DNA of 64,000 nt from Escherichia virus KFS-EC. Location of the stretch: the sequence record MH560358; one strand, written 5' to 3'. A program made the position numbers and the translations under genes. Below are positions 4,630 to 60,100 of this stretch, piece after piece. Below the pieces are notes generated by a model. The model was not told the origin of the DNA and did not search any database. It was given only the letters and a program-made list of their open reading frames with translations. Position 1 is the first letter of the stretch; each line of letters opens with the position of its first letter.

Positions 4630-5037
4630 ATGATTAAAGATTTTACTCCTAAAGCTGACTTAGAAACTTTTCTGCCGGAAGCACAGGAAAAATTGGACAT
4701 GTTGGCTATGTTTGAGTCAGAAGAACTATTGAAAATCGTTGAAGGTATCTCCGAGGATGAGCCGGAACTGGCGGTAGCAATGCTGTCTATCATCGACGGA
4801 ATTACTGTAAATGAAGCAATGGTTAAACATGTAAACGCACGCGGGGAAGTTGCACGTAAGAAAGATCGCAAAACCCGTGAGCGTAATGCTTACATGACTA
4901 CTGGCCTAAGCAAAGCTAAACGCCGTCAAATTGCCCGTCGTGCTGCAAAAACCAAACGTGCAAATCCATCTATCGAACGTCATGCGGAACGTAAGCGCAA
5001 AAAAGCAATGCGTAAACGTAAGGCGTTAGGATTATAA
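4630..5037 (+). CDS. 68: Prohead core protein gp68
   Basis: 135 aa with highly basic C-terminus, T4 position of gene 68. Confidence 0.75.
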   Translation: MIKDFTPKADLETFLPEAQEKLDMLAMFESEELLKIVEGISEDEPELAVAMLSIIDGITVNEAMVKHVNARGEVARKKDRKTRERNAYMTTGLSKAKRRQIARRAAKTKRANPSIERHAERKRKKAMRKRKALGL

Positions 5038-5048
5038 CAGGAAACAAC

Positions 5049-5744
5049 ATGGAAAAGAACGAATTACTGATCGAACAATGGGGCGTTCCTTGTGCTCGCG
5101 GTAGTTCGTCATTGCTTGAATCATTTGATGATAAGGCTACAGGAAATCTCTATATTCAAGGGATTTTCCTGCAAGCCGAAACGGTAAACCGCAATAAACG
5201 CTGGTATCCTCGCAGTGTTCTAGAAAATGCGGTTACTAAATACATACATGAACAAGTTGAGACACATCAAGCTCTAGGCGAACTTAATCACCCAGCAAGA
5301 GCAATGCCAGATCCATCTAATGCTTGCATCATAATTGAAAAATTATGGTGGGAAGGTAATAACGTGATGGGTAAAGCCCGTGTTATTGAAGGGGATAAAG
5401 GCGCAGGTGATAAACTTGCTGCACTGATTCGCGCTGGCTGGATTCCTGGCGTTTCCTCCCGTGGGTTGGGTCGGTTGAAAGACTCTGGTCGCGGATACAA
5501 TATTGTACAGGAAGGTTTTGTGTTGACGGTTGGTGTTGATGTTGTATGGGGTCCGAGCGCACCTGATGCGTGGGTAACTCCTGTTGTTGAGTCAACGGAT
5601 AGCGATTCTAGCGCGTCAGACGCACCAGAAAGCGATAAAACCGAAAAAGTGACTAACCCTACAGCCTCACAACAAAACATCGTAGAATTGAATAATAGCG
5701 CGTTTATGGCGCTCGCAGAAGCGTTATCTAAACGCTATAAATAA
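5049..5744 (+). CDS. 21: Prohead core protease gp21
   Basis: 231 aa; position between 68 and 22; conserved stretches such as ELNHP and GVSSRGLGR as I recall for T4 gp21. Confidence 0.85.
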   Translation: MEKNELLIEQWGVPCARGSSSLLESFDDKATGNLYIQGIFLQAETVNRNKRWYPRSVLENAVTKYIHEQVETHQALGELNHPARAMPDPSNACIIIEKLWWEGNNVMGKARVIEGDKGAGDKLAALIRAGWIPGVSSRGLGRLKDSGRGYNIVQEGFVLTVGVDVVWGPSAPDAWVTPVVESTDSDSSASDAPESDKTEKVTNPTASQQNIVELNNSAFMALAEALSKRYK

Positions 5745-52515: not shown

Positions 52516-53484
52516 TTACATCCCTAACAGAGCGTCAAGATCATCCAGATCAGAAGCGGAGGAAGTACCGCCACCCAGGTCCAGAGATGCCATCAGGTCA
52601 TCAGCGGAAGAACTCGACGCTGCGATAGCTGCGGTAGAAACAGACGCGGCGATAGCTGAGGTAGTGCCAGCATCGAATGCATTCATCTGTGCGTCAAAAT
52701 CGTCAAGCTGGCTGTTAATCGCTGCCGCAGCACTGGAAGCCGCCGCACCAGCTACCATAGAAACGCCCATAGTTTTCTTAAATTTGGTTTCCAGTTCATC
52801 GAACGGTTTAAACTGGCTAGGCGCTACAATCTCACCCAGATCAACCATGTTTTCCATCAGATATTTCTGATATGCTTCGTCTTCAATCTTCGGAAGCTGT
52901 GATTGCTGCATGAAACGAGAATCATCATAGTTCTGGTGTTTATCAACCTTCTTAGCTTTCAGGAGGAAGTTAGCACCGGAGAACACACAAGTTACATCTA
53001 CCGGAACTTCGCCCATATCGGTATTCACGTTCACCATTGCAACGATCTTATCATAAATTTTCTGACCGAAGCGGAATTTGAATACATTACCTTCATTTTC
53101 TGGTGCTTGAGGATCTTTCAGTACCAGAATATTTGCGTAGTAAGAGGCTTTACGCTTAATCAGTTGCCATTCGGTTTTATCGGTATTGTACAGGTCTTTT
53201 TCGTTAATATATTTGCACACAGGGCAAGAATCAAAATCACCGTGGGTGCTTGAGCAGTTTTCCCAATACCATTTACCATTAACTTTGAAGGAATGGTTTA
53301 CCAGTTTCACAATCGGCAGACCGTCTTCTGTCTTAGACGGCAGGAAGCGAATCAGGGCTTCACCGTTACCTGCTGCATCAGTCTTAATCTTCCACTCTTT
53401 CGGGTCTTCTTTGGAGAAACCGTTGCCACCTTTCAGTGCGGCCAGTTGAGCTTGCAGTTTGGAAGAATCTTGGCGTTTAAACAT
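52516..53484 (-). CDS. 32: Single-stranded DNA-binding protein gp32
   Basis: Start moved to MFKRQ (T4 gp32 starts MFKRK); strong similarity including the zinc-binding region and acidic C-terminus. Confidence 0.9.
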
Positions 53485-53544
53485 ATTCACTATTCCTTCT
53501 TTTGATTAATTTACTAGACTATTATACAGATTTAAATTTACTTG

Positions 53545-54225
53545 TCAACTATTTGTTTCGGCTTTTAATTGAGATATTTCTTTACACTCTTTAACTACTT
53601 TAACAAATAATGCTCTTGCTTTTGCGGCGTCAATAACAAGTAGTTTCTTGTACGCCTTCATTTTAACACTATAAGTTTGCCAAATCAAGTCTTTGGCTAC
53701 CTTGTCGTGTGCGTCGATTATATTTAGAAAGCTATCTAACAACATAAACGACTCAAACGATATAATCCGATTTTGCAGTAGTTTAAAGATACCGCTAGTT
53801 TCGGTTGCGGGATTGTATGTAATTAGCTCTTTAAGAGTAACCCCGCGTTTCTCTGAGAAGTATACCAGACTTTTAATGTCATCGTCAAATCGTGTTGCCG
53901 CATCAGTGATTTTACCGATGTACTCCATGTAAAACCCGTATGCGTCAACATCAGTGATTTCACCTACCCATGCATCGGTATTAGCTACCAGATTGCTTAG
54001 GAATAGGAAGTATAATTCTCTTAGATTGTACTTTTCCGCTAATTTTGCGAAATAATACTTATCTCTGCGTTTATTGAATGCGGCATTAGACAACCGCATC
54101 CTCCAATTGTATTTTACGCAATCATAACGCCCGTTCATATGAGCTTTCATCATGCAATATAACATATACACAGATTTAGCATTAATTCGCATATCTGGAT
54201 CTGGAGGAAGACGGTTTCTGATCAT
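53545..54225 (-). CDS. 59: Helicase loader gp59
   Basis: 226 aa; similarity to T4 gp59 (KSVYMLYCMMKAHMNGRYD, FLSNLVANTDAW). Confidence 0.9.
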   Translation of the reverse strand: MIRNRLPPDPDMRINAKSVYMLYCMMKAHMNGRYDCVKYNWRMRLSNAAFNKRRDKYYFAKLAEKYNLRELYFLFLSNLVANTDAWVGEITDVDAYGFYMEYIGKITDAATRFDDDIKSLVYFSEKRGVTLKELITYNPATETSGIFKLLQNRIISFESFMLLDSFLNIIDAHDKVAKDLIWQTYSVKMKAYKKLLVIDAAKARALFVKVVKECKEISQLKAETNS

Positions 54226-54234
54226 ACATACCCC

Positions 54235-54489
54235 TTAAATATCGAGAGTGTTGGTCGGTTCGTCGATCACTCCCTTCCTGAGCGTTCTATTTACTATACA
54301 TTCTTGTGTGATCTTGTCAATAATGGACACCGGAATATACTTCTGATAGTGACCATATTCGATAGAGTTTTCCTCTACAAACTGCGTTGTCGCTTCAAGA
54401 TAAGTCAATCCCTTTTCAACAACCAGTTTTTCGATTGCAAGACCGTTTGCTGTTTTGTTCGCGGCTTTTACCGCATGTTCATTAAGCAT
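54235..54489 (-). CDS. 33: Late transcription accessory protein gp33-like (by position)
   Basis: Small acidic protein between dsbA and 59 as in T4; start moved to ATG 5 nt after the dsbA stop; sequence not verified. Confidence 0.45.
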   Translation of the reverse strand: MLNEHAVKAANKTANGLAIEKLVVEKGLTYLEATTQFVEENSIEYGHYQKYIPVSIIDKITQECIVNRTLRKGVIDEPTNTLDI

Positions 54490-54757
54490 TGAACACCCGA
54501 TCATAGAGTTCTACCGCTTCGTCGCGTTCTGCTTCGAAGGTTTCTCGCTGTTGCTGGTGATACAGTTTAAACAGAATGCCCCACATTTTACCATCTACGC
54601 CTAATTCTTCTTTAGCACGCTGTTTGATCTCTTTGATCTTATCGCCATATGCTTCTTGAATGGTTTTCTGATCACTGGCTTCTTTAATCAGTTGTGCCAG
54701 GGTATTTCCGTGCACTGCTTCGTCAAATACTACTTTTTCTTTTTTCTGTTCAGTCAT
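54482..54757 (-). CDS. dsbA: dsDNA-binding protein DsbA
   Basis: 91 aa; FDEAVHG ... ELGVDGKMW ... ELYDRVF align with T4 DsbA. Confidence 0.8.
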   Translation of the reverse strand: MTEQKKEKVVFDEAVHGNTLAQLIKEASDQKTIQEAYGDKIKEIKQRAKEELGVDGKMWGILFKLYHQQQRETFEAERDEAVELYDRVFNA

Positions 54758-54761
54758 AATA

Positions 54762-55358
54762 TTAACCCTCTTTCGTCATTAATTGAAAACCACGTTCAGC
54801 TTTTGAAATTTCGCTAGGACTTAAATCGTCACCAACATATTCTAGCATCATTTCTCGGATAATGTCAAGTGCTTTTTCATCACCTGATTTTAACTCGAAC
54901 TCAAGTTCATAGTGAGCCTCTCCCATTCTTTCGCCGACTTTGCAATAATAGAAAGTGTCTTTGCACATTTCCACTATAGCACCCTCAAGGTCAAGTGTCA
55001 ATGACTTGCGGTATGTCATTACTTGAAGTAAAGGAACGATAAGGTCGGAGTTTACGCCTAGACTATCAACATAGTGATAGAAATCATCCGTTGTTGAAAA
55101 AGTAATTTCTTCTCGGTTGAAGAGTCCAGATTCACTATCACCTATTTTGACCATGATCAATGATCTATTAACGTCAAGTCGAGCATAAATTCCTTTTCGA
55201 CGTAGTGCATGATCTTCGGTATCATAATAAAATTCGTGTTTTAGAGTGTTAGCACGATCTACTAGATTGTACCCGTCATACATTGCTACCCACAAATCAC
55301 AGATTGTTTCGACGCCAATTTGTGAGTGTGCATAGTATTTTAATTCAAGTTCTTTCAT
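54762..55358 (-). CDS. CYTH-domain (triphosphate tunnel metalloenzyme-like) protein
   Basis: N-terminal ELELK (ExExK), FYYDTEDHALRRKGIYARL and C-terminal YELEFELK match the CYTH signature. Confidence 0.55.
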   Translation of the reverse strand: MKELELKYYAHSQIGVETICDLWVAMYDGYNLVDRANTLKHEFYYDTEDHALRRKGIYARLDVNRSLIMVKIGDSESGLFNREEITFSTTDDFYHYVDSLGVNSDLIVPLLQVMTYRKSLTLDLEGAIVEMCKDTFYYCKVGERMGEAHYELEFELKSGDEKALDIIREMMLEYVGDDLSPSEISKAERGFQLMTKEG

Positions 55359-55368
55359 ATGTCAACCC

Positions 55369-56316
55369 TTAGAACTCACCAATTTTCTGCAACATTTTAA
55401 CCAACGCATTTGTTACAAAATAGTTATAAATTTTACCGCGTGGTGCTGGTTTAGATTTTTCCCATGCTAACAAAATTTCATATTCGATGTTATCGGGAAT
55501 AAATTCGAAATCAATAAGTTCGCGGTTTTCGTCAAAGCGTCGTGCTTCTTCCTCTGTCATCAAAGACTTTGGATCTTCGGCATCGAAAATTTGCTCTAAC
55601 CATTTGGTTGCAATTGGTTTAGCCCTTTCTCCTTCCAGTCGTGAGATAATGAAATCACTACGGCACTTGATAGAAGCTACACCGTCTTTTGCGTCACCCT
55701 TAACACATTTTACCATAAGGTCTTTGTAAGGGCTACCATATTTGCATTTCTTCCACGCTTTCTGTACTGGCGCCCACTGTTTCACGTTTTTGTATTTGTG
55801 CAACTGTGTGTAGTCACCATCGCCTGAGTTGATCAGCACCTGGCGACCTTCGACAGAAAACTTTTTAGTTAATACAGCGATTATATCATCTGCTTCAACT
55901 TTGTCAACCTTAATAACGTGATAAGGCATGTTCTCTTTAAACTCTTCGGTGATCTTATTGATCGCAGCAAAGATCATCTCCCAATCACGCGGATCTGCGT
56001 CTCGTTTTTCCTTACGGTTGCGTTTATAGTAAGGGGCGATATCACGTCGCCAGTAACCTTTGCTTGAATCAAAAGCAAGTACCGTAATAGGGTATTGCTC
56101 TTTGAATTTTGTCATATTATAACGCATGGTGTCAAGGATAAGATGACGGATCATGCCTTCATTAATAGGATCTTCCGGTTTAAAGGTATGTGAGATAGTA
56201 GCAATCATAAGCTGCGACATATCAATCAAATGCACACCTTCCGGCAGTTTATCTTCTGGATCATCAAAGAAATCATTAAGTGTAGCGGTAGTTTTTGTAA
56301 ACGGGTTATACGTCAT
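55369..56316 (-). CDS. rnh: RNase H / 5'-3' flap endonuclease
   Basis: 315 aa; similarity to T4 RNase H (RHLILDT, GDGDYTQLHKY, GKIYNYFV). Confidence 0.9.
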   Translation of the reverse strand: MTYNPFTKTTATLNDFFDDPEDKLPEGVHLIDMSQLMIATISHTFKPEDPINEGMIRHLILDTMRYNMTKFKEQYPITVLAFDSSKGYWRRDIAPYYKRNRKEKRDADPRDWEMIFAAINKITEEFKENMPYHVIKVDKVEADDIIAVLTKKFSVEGRQVLINSGDGDYTQLHKYKNVKQWAPVQKAWKKCKYGSPYKDLMVKCVKGDAKDGVASIKCRSDFIISRLEGERAKPIATKWLEQIFDAEDPKSLMTEEEARRFDENRELIDFEFIPDNIEYEILLAWEKSKPAPRGKIYNYFVTNALVKMLQKIGEF

Positions 56317-56318
56317 AA

Positions 56319-56504
56319 TTAAGTTCTCTCCACTCTCACAACAACATATTCGCCAAACGAGTTAGATACTTCACGATCATACCCGTATTTCTCCATAACT
56401 CGCAGAATTGCATTGTTTAATTCGGCACGGAAATAATTGTAATCCTTATCTGGGATTCTGTCAACTATCCATTTTGCACCGTCTGACAAATCAACTTTAA
56501 CCAT
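56319..56504 (-). CDS. Hypothetical protein (61 aa)
   Basis: ATG ORF immediately upstream of rnh. Confidence 0.45.
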   Translation of the reverse strand: MVKVDLSDGAKWIVDRIPDKDYNYFRAELNNAILRVMEKYGYDREVSNSFGEYVVVRVERT

Positions 56505-56510
56505 AATATA

Positions 56511-57092
56511 TCATCCTCTTTTTGGAAAATTTAAATAAGCATACTCGCCAACTATTTCATGTGCTGCACGGTCATAAGCCTTAGCCGCCTCAACTTCTGT
56601 CTCAAAGTATCCTAGATGTATATTCTTTCGATTGATAACAATATACGCCTTCCACGGCTTTTTCTTGCTTGGTGATAATGATACACCTTTATATTTGCTA
56701 TGGCAAGCCTTTTTCTTTGAGACGTTAAACTGATTTTGCTGTTCGGTTGCTTCTCTCATGTTTGACGGTCTATTGTTAGTTTTGTCTTGGTCTATGTGAT
56801 CTATTCGTTCAACCTGAGTACCATACTCTAAAAACCAGACAACTCTATGTACAAACAGATTAAGTTTATGACCATTGTTGTAAAATGTAAAGTATAAATA
56901 TCCTTCTTTATGGAGACATACCCTTACCACATCACCTTTTTTGTATATGGACCCTTCTTTTCGGAATCCAGCAGCTACAGAATCCTTTAAATGGTATAAT
57001 ATTCCATCGACATGATAGAATCTACCTTTTATCGCTTTCTGTGTCTCGATATCCCAAAATTTTGTTTTTGCCACAACAAACACCACACACAA
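56511..57092 (-). CDS. HNH-AP2 homing endonuclease
   Basis: HNH_3 segment (HRVVWF...IDHIDQDKTNNRPSNM) followed by AP2-like DNA-binding segment (YKGVS...KPWKAYIVINRKNIHLGYFETEVEAAKAYDRAA). Confidence 0.7.
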   Translation of the reverse strand: MCVVFVVAKTKFWDIETQKAIKGRFYHVDGILYHLKDSVAAGFRKEGSIYKKGDVVRVCLHKEGYLYFTFYNNGHKLNLFVHRVVWFLEYGTQVERIDHIDQDKTNNRPSNMREATEQQNQFNVSKKKACHSKYKGVSLSPSKKKPWKAYIVINRKNIHLGYFETEVEAAKAYDRAAHEIVGEYAYLNFPKRG

Positions 57093-57126
57093 TAAATAAT
57101 TTCATATTATAACAGGAGACCCAATA

Positions 57127-60100
57127 ATGGCAGATTTTTCTCAACATTTCAAGGCCACCTTTGGCTTTGACGCTGGTAATGAAAAGGTCGTCAATGTAGC
57201 ATACGCAGATAAAAACACATCAACGGATGCGGTCAACGTTGAATTTTTCAATTACCATAATGGTATTACTCAGTATGACACAACTCGCGGTTATGATCAA
57301 TACGGAACTACAATCTATCAAAACCGTCCGTATTATGCAAAAGAAGATATCACAAAGCCAGCAGGTGATTTTGACCCGACTAAATGGCAAGCACTGCGCA
57401 CGGACCCACGTTGGGATTATATTGCAGCAACTTCCGGTGATACTCCTTTAAAGTCTGGTGATTATATCGCAGCAGATGGTCAATTTGCAAACTTGACTTT
57501 CTCGATGCCAACTAAACCAGCAGAGGGAGACACTATAACAGTAAAAGATATCGGTGGCAAGTGTGGTGTTAACGAATTATCGTTCTTGAGTTCAGGACAT
57601 GAGTTTTACCATAACGGTAATGTGTATAACCGAAAATGGTATTGCACTACCCCGTATGCAATGAACTATTTCATCTTTGTTCGGAATCGTTGGCATGTTT
57701 ATCAGACGGGAACAGAGCCGCGCGGTGTGTACGCACAGCCAGCGATTGATGCTATTCAAATGCAGAATGGTGATCAGGTATTTCGTCGTAGTTCGTTGGG
57801 TAATATTACCTTAGTGCTTCCTAAGTTTGCCAACAATGGCGACATGATCCAGACTACAGACCTTGACGGATTAACCGCAACCAACCACGTTACGGTTAAA
57901 GTTCATGAGCACGCAGAAGAACAATCAATTGGCACGTCCGGTCTAAAAGAGATTATTGGTAAGCGTAGCGGTCATGGTGTATTCATCTTTGACAAGACGG
58001 AAAACTTATGGCGTTTGTGGGATGGTGATCAGTCTGTTCGTCTTAAACCGATCATCGATGACACTCGCTTGCAACCTAATAGCTATGTTGCTGTATTTGG
58101 TGGTCGTGATGTTACTCTGACGCTGCCAACCAATGTCGAGCCGGGTGATCGTATTCAAGTTTCTATGCAGTATATGCACGGAAACCAGAATTGCCGTATT
58201 ATCACCCCCACAGAGGATACAAAAATCCTTATGCCGAAAAACATGGTTCAGTTTCCGAAGCGTAGCGAGTACCCATTCAACGGGACCGACACATGGAAGG
58301 AAGTGTCTGAATTGTCGTTCAATGCGGCTAGTGATTATGTACCTTATCTGGAGTTCTCTTATTCAGAAGGTGATGATGGTAAGAAATACTGGTTGGTGGC
58401 ACACGCTCATCCGATCGTAGAACGAGTAGATCCGACTCGTAAAGCGCGTGTCGGTGTAATTGCACTGGCTACCCAGACTGAAACGAATAAAAACCATGAA
58501 GAGAATCCTAGCGACGAAGTTGCAGTAACACCAAAAATGCTGGCTAATAAAACAGCCAACGAAACTCGACGCGGTATTGCTCGCATTGCGACTCAAGCGG
58601 AAACGCATCAAGATACTGGTTCCAACTTCATGGATGATGTTATCGTTACGCCTAAAAAGTTAAATGACTGTGTTGCTACCGAAGCCCGTCGTGGTGTGAT
58701 GGAAATTGCAACCCAGCACGAAACCAATGAAGGTTTAGACGATACCCGCGCTATTACTCCTAAGAAATTAGAAGAACGTCGCGCTTCCGAAGATTTAGCT
58801 GGTATTGCTGAAATTGTTCAGGCTGGCGGTAGTGCTGCCGCTCGACGTGGCGAAGCTGGTACAGGGATCTATAACATCAACGACCATGCTAAAATTGTTA
58901 CTCCACAAAACATCAACGAAGTCAAGGCGACAGAAACTTCCCGTGGTGTTGGCTATCTGGCAACTGACGCGGAAGTGCAAGGGGCTACAGAATCAACCCC
59001 GCAAGATGCTTTACTAATCACGACTCGCACGCTAACGAAACGTACTGCTACCGAATCGCGCACTGGTATCGCTGAAATTGCAACCCAGGAAGAAACAAAC
59101 TTAGGTCAAAGTGATAACCATATCATCACGCCTAAAAAGCTGCATACTCGCCGCGCAACGGAAACTTTACATGGTTTAGCAGAAATTGCAACTCAGCCGG
59201 AATTTGATGCAGGTCTTGATGATGCTCGCATTTCTACCCCATTGAAGATTAAAACCTTCTTTGAGAATGCACAGCGTTTGAAAGTAGATCCGACTCAGGG
59301 GCTTAACCTTACTGGTGATTTGTGGCAAGGTATCATGATCAGCGGTCTGGATGCAACCGAAGACACAAAAGGTGTCGCTAAAGTTGCTACTACTCAGCTT
59401 ACGGATGCTGGTCAAGATGATACTACAATCATCACGCCTAAAAAGCTGCAAGGCAAAAAAGCCACCGAAGGTAAAGAAGGTATTATCCGCGTTGGTACTC
59501 AAGACGAAACCGTCGCTGGTACTATGGACAATGTAGCAATTTCGCCTAAAAACTTCAAATATGTTGTTCAGACAGAAGAAACATGGCAAGCAACGGAAGC
59601 CCGTCGCGGATTCCTGAAAGTAGCAACACAAGAAAACTGTTTTGTTGGTGATAATCTGCAAGGTTCTACTCAAGAGCTTGATGAATATCAGCATGATGGG
59701 ATTGCGGTAACTCCGAAAGGATTAAACTACGCACTTGCTAATTTCTTACCTAAAATGGCAACCGCTCAGAATAGTTTGAAATTGGGTAACGTAGAGGCCG
59801 CTAAATGGGCGCGTAGAGACATTGACCAGACCATTGAGAGCAATTACACGTTTAATAAAAACGTTAACTTGAAGGGCGATTTAGAGTGCTTAAAATCCGG
59901 TTCCTTTGAAACTCTGTTTGTGACTAAGAACTCGACTGACGATCCGAGTAATGGTCATCTGGTATTGGGTGAGCGTGGAGTTGACGGTCACACCGGAATT
60001 ACTCTGCATGGCACAACCTTGTCAGAAGGTATGGAAAACTCATGGTCTATTATCGTTGGTGGTACTGGAACGGCGCAAGCAGTTAATAGTGATGCTATCG

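Follow-up and report, generated by a model that had tools for sequence, protein, structure and literature searches.

A CYTH-family protein with a conserved predicted triphosphate tunnel and a variable core, encoded between rnh and dsbA in Escherichia virus KFS-EC

Among the triphosphate tunnel metalloenzymes (TTMs) of the CYTH family, Escherichia coli YgiF has been described residue by residue: Glu-160 forms metal site 1; Glu-4, Glu-6, and Glu-162 form metal site 2, the site that activates the water for attack; the catalytic Arg is Arg-56; and Lys-69 orients and binds the substrate (Martinez et al. 2015, PMC4641920). Class IV cyclases differ from this pattern in carrying an HFxxxxExExK extension involved in adenine stacking, in having a small residue (C, V, or L) in place of the first Arg, and in having Ala in place of the second Glu of the ExE motif, and thiamine triphosphatases (ThTPases) have a W/Y-x-R-x-R strand where ordinary TTMs have small-x-R-x-R (Vogt et al. 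2021, PMC8233210). For a phage protein, that of RB49ORF244c in phage RB49, a CYTH match with an E value of 0.0026 has been reported (Nolan et al. 2006, PMC1524935). Here we describe the CYTH gene located between rnh and dsbA in a stretch of 64,000 nucleotides (nt) from Escherichia virus KFS-EC (sequence record MH560358), the whole of which is referred to as the window. The fold of the encoded protein, the conservation of its residues, and the position of the gene were established in the present analysis, and from these we infer catalytic activity, substrate, and timing of expression and consider it quite likely that the protein is a two-metal phosphohydrolase.

The open reading frame (ORF) encodes 198 amino acids (aa) and extends on the minus strand from an ATG to a TAA codon. 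It had been singled out as a CYTH-domain protein by a first-pass annotation made by a model from the sequence alone, and the three segments on which that call rested were all present: the N-terminal ExExK, as ELELK at residues 3 to 7; YYDT (residues 44 to 47), followed by RRKG (residues 53 to 56) and then R60; and YELEFELK at residues 150 to 157 (nt 54888-54911). Profile searches, fold searches, and the conservation of the tunnel residues upheld the assignment. The match to the Pfam CYTH profile (PF01928), which spanned positions 36 to 178 of its 179, exceeded the curated gathering score (27.9 versus 23.2 bits; E 2.5e-6), and the only sequence match in the PDB was E. coli YgiF; an NCBIfam scan of the protein returned 0 families. 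The AlphaFold2 model, made with 21 family members, had a predicted local distance difference test score (pLDDT) of 91.2 and a predicted template modeling score (pTM) of 0.84, and contained eight long strands and a C-terminal helix, that is, the eight-stranded tunnel fold with a plug helix (residues 186 to 194 in the model). In a Foldseek search of the PDB, the top matches were all TTM/CYTH structures, with YgiF the best (E 1e-12; query template modeling score [TMq], 0.77). Conservation of the acidic tunnel residues, which had been proposed as a check on the CYTH call together with the profile search, was found across the family and extended to the basic ones. Furthermore, among 12 nonredundant clade members, with parity set by the known tunnel residues, strand positions of tunnel parity had a mean entropy of 0.64 versus 1.44 for outward-facing positions (Mann-Whitney p = 5e-6). 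Inward positions were thus far more conserved, which is the pattern expected of a working tunnel enzyme.

The residues described for YgiF all had equivalents in the phage protein, namely, E153 (site 1), E3, E5, and E155 (site 2), R60 (the catalytic Arg), and K71 (Lys-69), and all of these were invariant. E3 and E5 are predicted to be ligands of metal site 2, with E153 predicted to bind metal 1 and E155 metal 2; both glutamates of the ExE on strand beta8 were kept, as in TTM phosphohydrolases. In addition, K7, R82, E84, R117, E130, D134, E151, K186, and R189 were invariant or nearly so in the clade. Since the tunnel lining is invariant, a two-metal phosphohydrolase is the most likely function. 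The protein would be a stand-alone TTM of the YgiF-like branch, dependent on Mg2+ or Mn2+, in which a triphosphate-bearing substrate would be held in the tunnel by K7, R60, K71, R82, R117, K186, and R189; metal 1 would be bound through E153, and metal 2, bound by E3, E5, and E155, would activate a water molecule for attack on the terminal phosphate.

The first Arg of the RxR strand (Arg-56 in YgiF and Arg-52 in AtTTM3) corresponded to the invariant R60 in a register taken from sequence spacing. A spacing of 14 between the Asp of YYD and the first Arg was seen in 86 of the 87 generic CYTH proteins and is shared by D46 and R60; the nearest relative outside the clade, P0046, aligned without gaps between both flanking anchors, so that its RxR fell on positions 60 and 62; and 114 of 146 generic proteins aligned in the R60 register, with Arg at position 62. 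R60 was taken as the catalytic Arg because these three lines agreed. An alternative register with Y58 at the catalytic Arg, which would mean a dead or cyclase-like site, was rejected on the D46-R60 spacing and the P0046 alignment. The complete small-x-R-x-R strand was not present, as the clade has Y58 and D62. Among the 146 generic proteins, the residues at position 58 included Ala (67 proteins), Ser (22), Gly (16), Thr (12), and Tyr (3), and those at position 62 included Arg (114) and Asp (9); the combination Y-x-R-x-D/E occurred in 1 of the 146 cellular relatives. At position 58 the more distant clade members had Val or Ile, and their residue at position 62 was Asp or Asn. Substrate binding by ThTPase involves stacking of the motif's aromatic residue on the organic moiety. 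As Y58 occupies this ThTPase-type aromatic position, the phage enzyme may by analogy prefer an organic triphosphate over bare inorganic tripolyphosphate (PPPi), and the Y58-x-R60-x-D62 strand would then mark a natural substrate with an organic group (a nucleoside or similar). In AtTTM3, changing the second Arg to Ala left activity without strong impairment (PMC4641920).

Several points weigh against this assignment of function. Pairwise and profile HMMER comparisons with YgiF placed Y58 opposite the catalytic Arg-56, and the identification of R60 as the catalytic residue is our inference from spacing statistics, not from coordinate superposition. The second Arg is replaced by an invariant Asp (D62), and an aromatic residue stands where TTMs have Ala, Ser, or Gly, so that the substrate could be something not yet considered. 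Constraint on the core of the gene was relaxed, with ratios of nonsynonymous to synonymous substitution rates (dN/dS) of 0.26 to 0.41. In phage vB_EcoM_G2494 (G2494; MK327935, positions 301-896), the orthologue is frameshifted into 66-aa and 130-aa ORFs; unless this reflects a sequencing error, phage growth in culture does not require the gene. Finally, literature searches found no enzyme assay reported for any clade member. The 130-aa G2494 fragment, P0034, has a BFVD entry of equal length (130 aa) and 96% identity.

One alternative is a cyclase of class IV (CyaB-like), adenylate or nucleotidyl, that would make cAMP or another cyclic nucleotide in the infected cell and thereby rewire host CRP control or interfere with cyclic-nucleotide signaling. 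It is suggested by the membership of CyaB in the CYTH family, by the label “adenylate cyclase” given to the orthologue in the PHB13, AV108, and KMB43 records, and by the loss of one of the two strand arginines (D62). However, the published class IV signature was lacking at each of its three positions. The HF motif is absent, and none is possible because ExExK begins at residue 3 of an N-terminus that reads M-K-E-L-E-L-K; replacement of the first Arg was not seen, R60 being kept at its canonical spacing; and replacement of the second Glu by Ala was not seen, E155 being invariant. All three features point to a hydrolase rather than a cyclase. The class IV cyclase was rejected as very improbable, and the “adenylate cyclase” label, which the sequence does not support, should not be propagated from the several GenBank records that carry it.

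The setting of the gene within a cluster of nucleic-acid enzymes (rnh, dsbA, 33, 59, and 32) and the TTM fold common to Cet1-type RNA triphosphatases raise another alternative, an RNA 5'-triphosphatase that would convert ppp-RNA to pp-RNA (or p-RNA) and feed host mRNA decay or phage RNA processing. Cet1-type enzymes (PF02940) were not the closest relatives, however, and YgiF-type triphosphatases were much nearer structurally, so we consider an RNA 5'-triphosphatase distinctly improbable. The range of activities suggested for CYTH enzymes in the first-pass annotation can therefore be narrowed: a phosphohydrolase with a small triphosphate compound as its substrate is favored, the cyclase signature being lacking and the Cet1-type RNA triphosphatases distant. 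No evidence for a thiamine substrate was found.

The gene itself was divided into a hypervariable core cassette and a strictly conserved 3' segment. Relative to Skers and the P0042 metagenomic contigs, the neighboring proteins were 97 to 99% identical and the CYTH protein 58%. In 45-nt windows, the DNA identity of the core was 36 to 64% to Skers and P0042-type alleles, versus 93 to 100% for the flanks, and 69 to 91% to Phi1, Brandy, and MIZ6. Boundaries at about 55334 and at 54891 recurred in every allele comparison and coincided with the DNA encoding ExExK and ExExE. For the Phi1, Brandy, and MIZ6 alleles, synonymous divergence (dS) was 0.42 to 0.49 in the core versus 0.04 to 0.17 in rnh, dsbA, and gene 59, and the core dN/dS given above compares with 0.01 to 0.14 in the same three genes. 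Within the core, strand codons had dN/dS values of 0.10 to 0.27, and helices and loops had values of 0.5 to 0.6, with 1.4 in the closest pair, from only 12 substitutions. In the last 49 codons, nonsynonymous divergence (dN) was about 0. Our reading is that several old core alleles circulate and are recombined between near-identical backbones at the conserved ends, and that the exterior of the protein is under relaxed or partly diversifying selection with the tunnel fixed, the data falling short of proving positive selection. Homing endonuclease genes come and go beside the cluster (HNH-AP2 here, HNH in Skers, and SegG in T4) and could promote exchange of the core. The variability of the core cassette is apparently an undescribed feature.

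This division also bears on whether the protein is catalytic at all. The 49 C-terminal codons had dN near 0 in all Krischvirus alleles, with the rest of the protein down to 58% identity, and such invariance could reflect a conserved protein-protein interface; the protein would then be a noncatalytic triphosphate “sponge,” or a structural or regulatory partner of its neighbors through the invariant C-terminal 50 or so residues. However, the plug helix and the ExExE strand that binds metal both lie in the invariant part, whose conservation is therefore explained by catalysis. Relatives with only 34% identity still have every metal ligand and the catalytic Arg unchanged, which mere binding would not need. 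A purely binding or partner role is thus very improbable.

The same variability pattern, and only that pattern, gives rise to an arms-race reading, in which the protein is a counter-defense or host-takeover enzyme. Its action would be to degrade a triphosphate-bearing molecule, whether a host immune signal, an alarmone, or a by-product of defense such as the tripolyphosphate released by deoxynucleoside triphosphate triphosphohydrolases (these proposed targets are conjecture on our part), or it would itself be sensed by a defense system. Several ancient core alleles would remain in circulation and be exchanged through recombination at the two ends that encode the catalytic motifs, with the tunnel fixed and the exterior changing so as to evade recognition or inhibition by the host; the unusual Y-x-R-x-D strand would point to a substrate that no TTM has so far been described to use. 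Consistent with this are the hypervariability of the core against a nearly identical backbone, the persistence of several old allele classes, the elevated dN/dS of helices and loops (on few changes in the closest pair), the invariant tunnel, the limitation of an accessory gene to one phage lineage, and its apparent dispensability. On the other hand, the protein matched no PADLOC defense model (0 families at E up to 1) and no known anti-defense family, the literature gave no experimental link, and dN/dS was below 1 overall; the elevated dS indicates that old alleles and recombination account for much of the pattern, and neutral mosaicism near homing endonucleases could give rise to these as well. 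We regard a counter-defense role as unlikely. Literature searches on phage CYTH/TTM function, on RB49 with ygiF, and on Krischvirus anti-defense yielded nothing relevant. For CYTH triphosphatases of jumbo phages, removal of canonical nucleotides has been suggested (Iyer et al. 2021). Clearance of canonical nucleoside triphosphates (NTPs) in favor of modified DNA bases is unlikely here; the cytosine of RB49 DNA is unmodified (PMC4041780), and that rationale therefore does not fit.

The window is a sequence of Krischvirus, the genus of RB49-like coliphages. The CYTH protein was found by tblastn in 57 phage records, all of them Krischvirus, and rnh with at least 95% identity was likewise found in 57 records; the equal counts indicate that the gene is universal in Krischvirus. 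The ORF is more than a chance reading frame because it is present in 57 of 57 records, has dN/dS below 1, matches Pfam above threshold, and has a confident predicted fold. An RNA element or an opposite-strand gene was considered in its place and rejected: an Rfam scan of positions 53400-57300 found no RNA element, and the only plus-strand ORF at the locus was a 53-aa overlap. The DNA of the locus was 96 to 98% identical to that of Krischvirus genomes such as FL15, JSE, and RB49, and the orthologues (RB49ORF244c, Phi1 ORF245, and phrog_14893) were 83 to 99% identical and at the same position. GenBank labels were mostly “hypothetical,” with a few of “adenylate cyclase” or “inorganic triphosphatase”; the RB49 record reads “similar to P45267, P30871, HI1598, ygiF,” and PHROGs lists phrog_14893 as of unknown function. 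The CYTH domain call is thus already public and is not new here.

Outside Krischvirus, four more distant metagenomic relatives shared the gene at the same site: in P0042 (58% identical), P0043 (48%), P0044 (40%), and P0045 (34%), it lies directly between rnh and dsbA-33, the rnh side being seen only where the contig extends to rnh. Occupation of the same site by homologues with 34 to 58% identity indicates that the gene is an old resident of the lineage. When 1.84 billion representative proteins were searched with a profile, only four clade representatives were found at E values of 1e-15 or less, the weaker matches being generic CYTH and CYTH-CHAD proteins; by sequence, the phage CYTH proteins form a small, isolated clade. 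Recent capture of host ygiF was rejected, given 23 to 24% identity, the lack of a CHAD domain, and an archaeal nearest relative outside the clade (E 7e-13). This relative, P0046, is encoded on an archaeal-looking contig with Sec61beta and RIO1 (L016/L017, positions 5001-5606), directly downstream of a PRK/uridine-kinase-family gene and with an RNA ligase and a NUDIX gene nearby, an arrangement that recalls the PRK-CYTH fusion of plant TTM1/2. The genomic contexts of P0046 and P0108 gave no information on the role in phage.

The rnh-dsbA-33-59-32 setting named in the first-pass annotation was confirmed, with all of these genes on the minus strand. The CYTH start lies 10 nt past the rnh stop and is preceded by an AAGGG Shine-Dalgarno sequence, and the dsbA start lies 4 nt past the CYTH stop, with the dsbA Shine-Dalgarno sequence inside the 3' segment of the CYTH gene. 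In T4, dsbA ends at 149778 and rnh starts at 149787, leaving only 8 bp between them, so that T4 indeed has no gene at this site, as the annotation had stated. Its description of the gene as inserted therefore holds relative to T4 but not within the Krischvirus lineage and its distant relatives, where the gene is a fixed resident of the site. Coordinates are given in Table 1.

Table 1. Positions of the CYTH gene, its motifs and segments, and associated features in the window
Feature	Position	Strand	Basis or remarks
CYTH/TTM gene	54762..55358	-	Orthologue of RB49ORF244c and Phi1 ORF245; member of phrog_14893
ExExK (E3, E5, K7), strand beta1	55338..55352	-	Invariant in 45/45 clade members; aligns to YgiF Glu-4/Glu-6
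Y58-A-R60-L-D62, atypical small-x-R-x-R strand	55173..55187	-	D46-R60 spacing, column statistics
E151-x-E153-x-E155, strand beta8	54894..54908	-	Invariant; aligns to YgiF Glu-160/Glu-162
SKAERG, start of C-terminal plug helix (S185, K186, R189, G190)	54789..54806	-	Invariant; aligns to YgiF SKAARG
Hypervariable core cassette, codons ~9-156	54891..55334	-	45-nt window identity, dS, dN/dS
Strictly conserved 3' segment, last ~43 codons	54762..54890	-	dN ~0 in every Krischvirus allele
Candidate early promoter inside rnh (TTGACA, 16 nt, TATAAT, TG extension)	55880..55907	-	12/12 consensus match
rnh (T4-type RNase H/5'-3' exonuclease), upstream neighbor	55369-56316	-	Pfam RNaseH_C 2.6e-37, 5_3_exonuc_N 6e-18
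dsbA (dsDNA-binding late-transcription factor), downstream neighbor	54482-54757	-	Pfam Phage_DsbA 5.4e-22
Gene 33	54235-54504	-	Strong Pfam or PHROG match
Gene 59	53545-54225	-	Strong Pfam or PHROG match
Gene 32	52516-53490	-	Strong Pfam or PHROG match

The candidate sigma70-type promoter lies about 520 nt upstream of the CYTH start, and no TATAAATA late promoter was found on the minus strand nearer to the gene than 38722. A perfect sigma70-type promoter upstream, together with the lack of a late promoter nearby, suggests that transcription of the gene is probably early and shared with the replication genes. On the minus strand of positions 54000-57300, 20 sigma70-like promoter matches were found, versus 10.8 +/- 2.8 expected. 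Three of the matches lie inside the CYTH gene (55365-55337, 55001-54973, and 54868-54839), the last of them in the conserved 3' segment and about 80 nt upstream of dsbA.

Further features were observed around the gene. dsbA and gene 33 share 23 nt (54482-54504), an overlap also seen in RB49 and T4. The gene 33 annotated in Brandy, MIZ6, Skers, and L004 is shorter (84 aa) and overlaps dsbA less. Between rnh and the HNH-AP2 gene is a conserved 61-aa ORF of unassigned function (56319-56504, minus strand; phrog_3594, E 1e-30), which every Krischvirus locus examined carried in the interval from rnh to gene 34; the more distant phage L003 has an 85-aa ORF at this position with only 27% identity. The HNH-AP2 gene (56511-57092, minus strand; HNH_3, 1.6e-12; AP2, 3.6e-8) lies between the 61-aa ORF and gene 34. 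Only some close relatives carry it: among the 30 records listed, 7 cover the query through 56600, and the others stop at about 56522. Skers, RB49, and Phi1 all lack it, and in Skers an HNH gene is found instead between genes 59 and 32, the place occupied by SegG in T4. Two further patches of variation were seen. Positions 55470-55514 in rnh form a mosaic patch that was 60 to 67% identical to Skers, Phi1, GEC-3S, and RB49 and 91 to 98% identical to Brandy, MIZ6, and the P0042 contig, with the rest of rnh at 93 to 100%. Positions 52590-52680 in gene 32, encoding the acidic, Ala/Ser-rich C-terminal tail of gp32, had 68 to 73% DNA identity to Skers, versus 97 to 100% for gene 32 outside this patch.

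We know of no phage CYTH/TTM enzyme with a demonstrated role, and the cellular family has, to our knowledge, few known physiological functions. The gene is fixed throughout a genus of coliphages that are candidates for therapy, within a core cluster for replication and late transcription, and a fixed gene with a fully intact catalytic tunnel is presumably useful during infection. The two-metal phosphohydrolase would be a fixed accessory gene product of Krischvirus phages and their relatives, transcribed early alongside the replication genes. If its substrate is a signaling or stress nucleotide, it would represent a new enzyme class for phage host takeover or counter-defense; if it is only a housekeeping hydrolase of tripolyphosphate or NTPs, it would be an ordinary accessory gene. 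Only two points go beyond routine annotation: the unusual Y-x-R-x-D strand and the cassette-like diversity of the core alleles.

Compared with known systems, the phage gene is a divergent member of a well-known enzyme family. RB49ORF244c, Phi1 ORF245, and phrog_14893 represent the same gene with no substantive difference, and those records assign no function. The N-terminal TTM domain of E. coli YgiF, an inorganic triphosphatase (PDB 5a60/5a61), was closest in both the sequence and the fold searches of the PDB; however, the phage protein has 198 aa and no CHAD domain, whereas YgiF has 433 aa, the identity is about 23 to 24%, the phage strand reads Y-x-R-x-D where YgiF-type enzymes have G/A-x-R-x-R, and the beta-hairpin that follows this strand is shorter. 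CyaB of Yersinia pestis (PDB 2fjt/3n0y) shares the superfamily and the tunnel fold, but the phage protein is without HF and keeps the Arg and the Glu that cyclases replace, and the structural match was much weaker. The W/Y-x-R-x-R motif of ThTPases (mammalian enzyme, PDB 3bhd and 5a64) is matched only in part by the phage protein, which has the aromatic Y58 and the first Arg but Asp for the second Arg; identity is 14 to 18%, and the distant clade members have V or I, not an aromatic residue, at this position.
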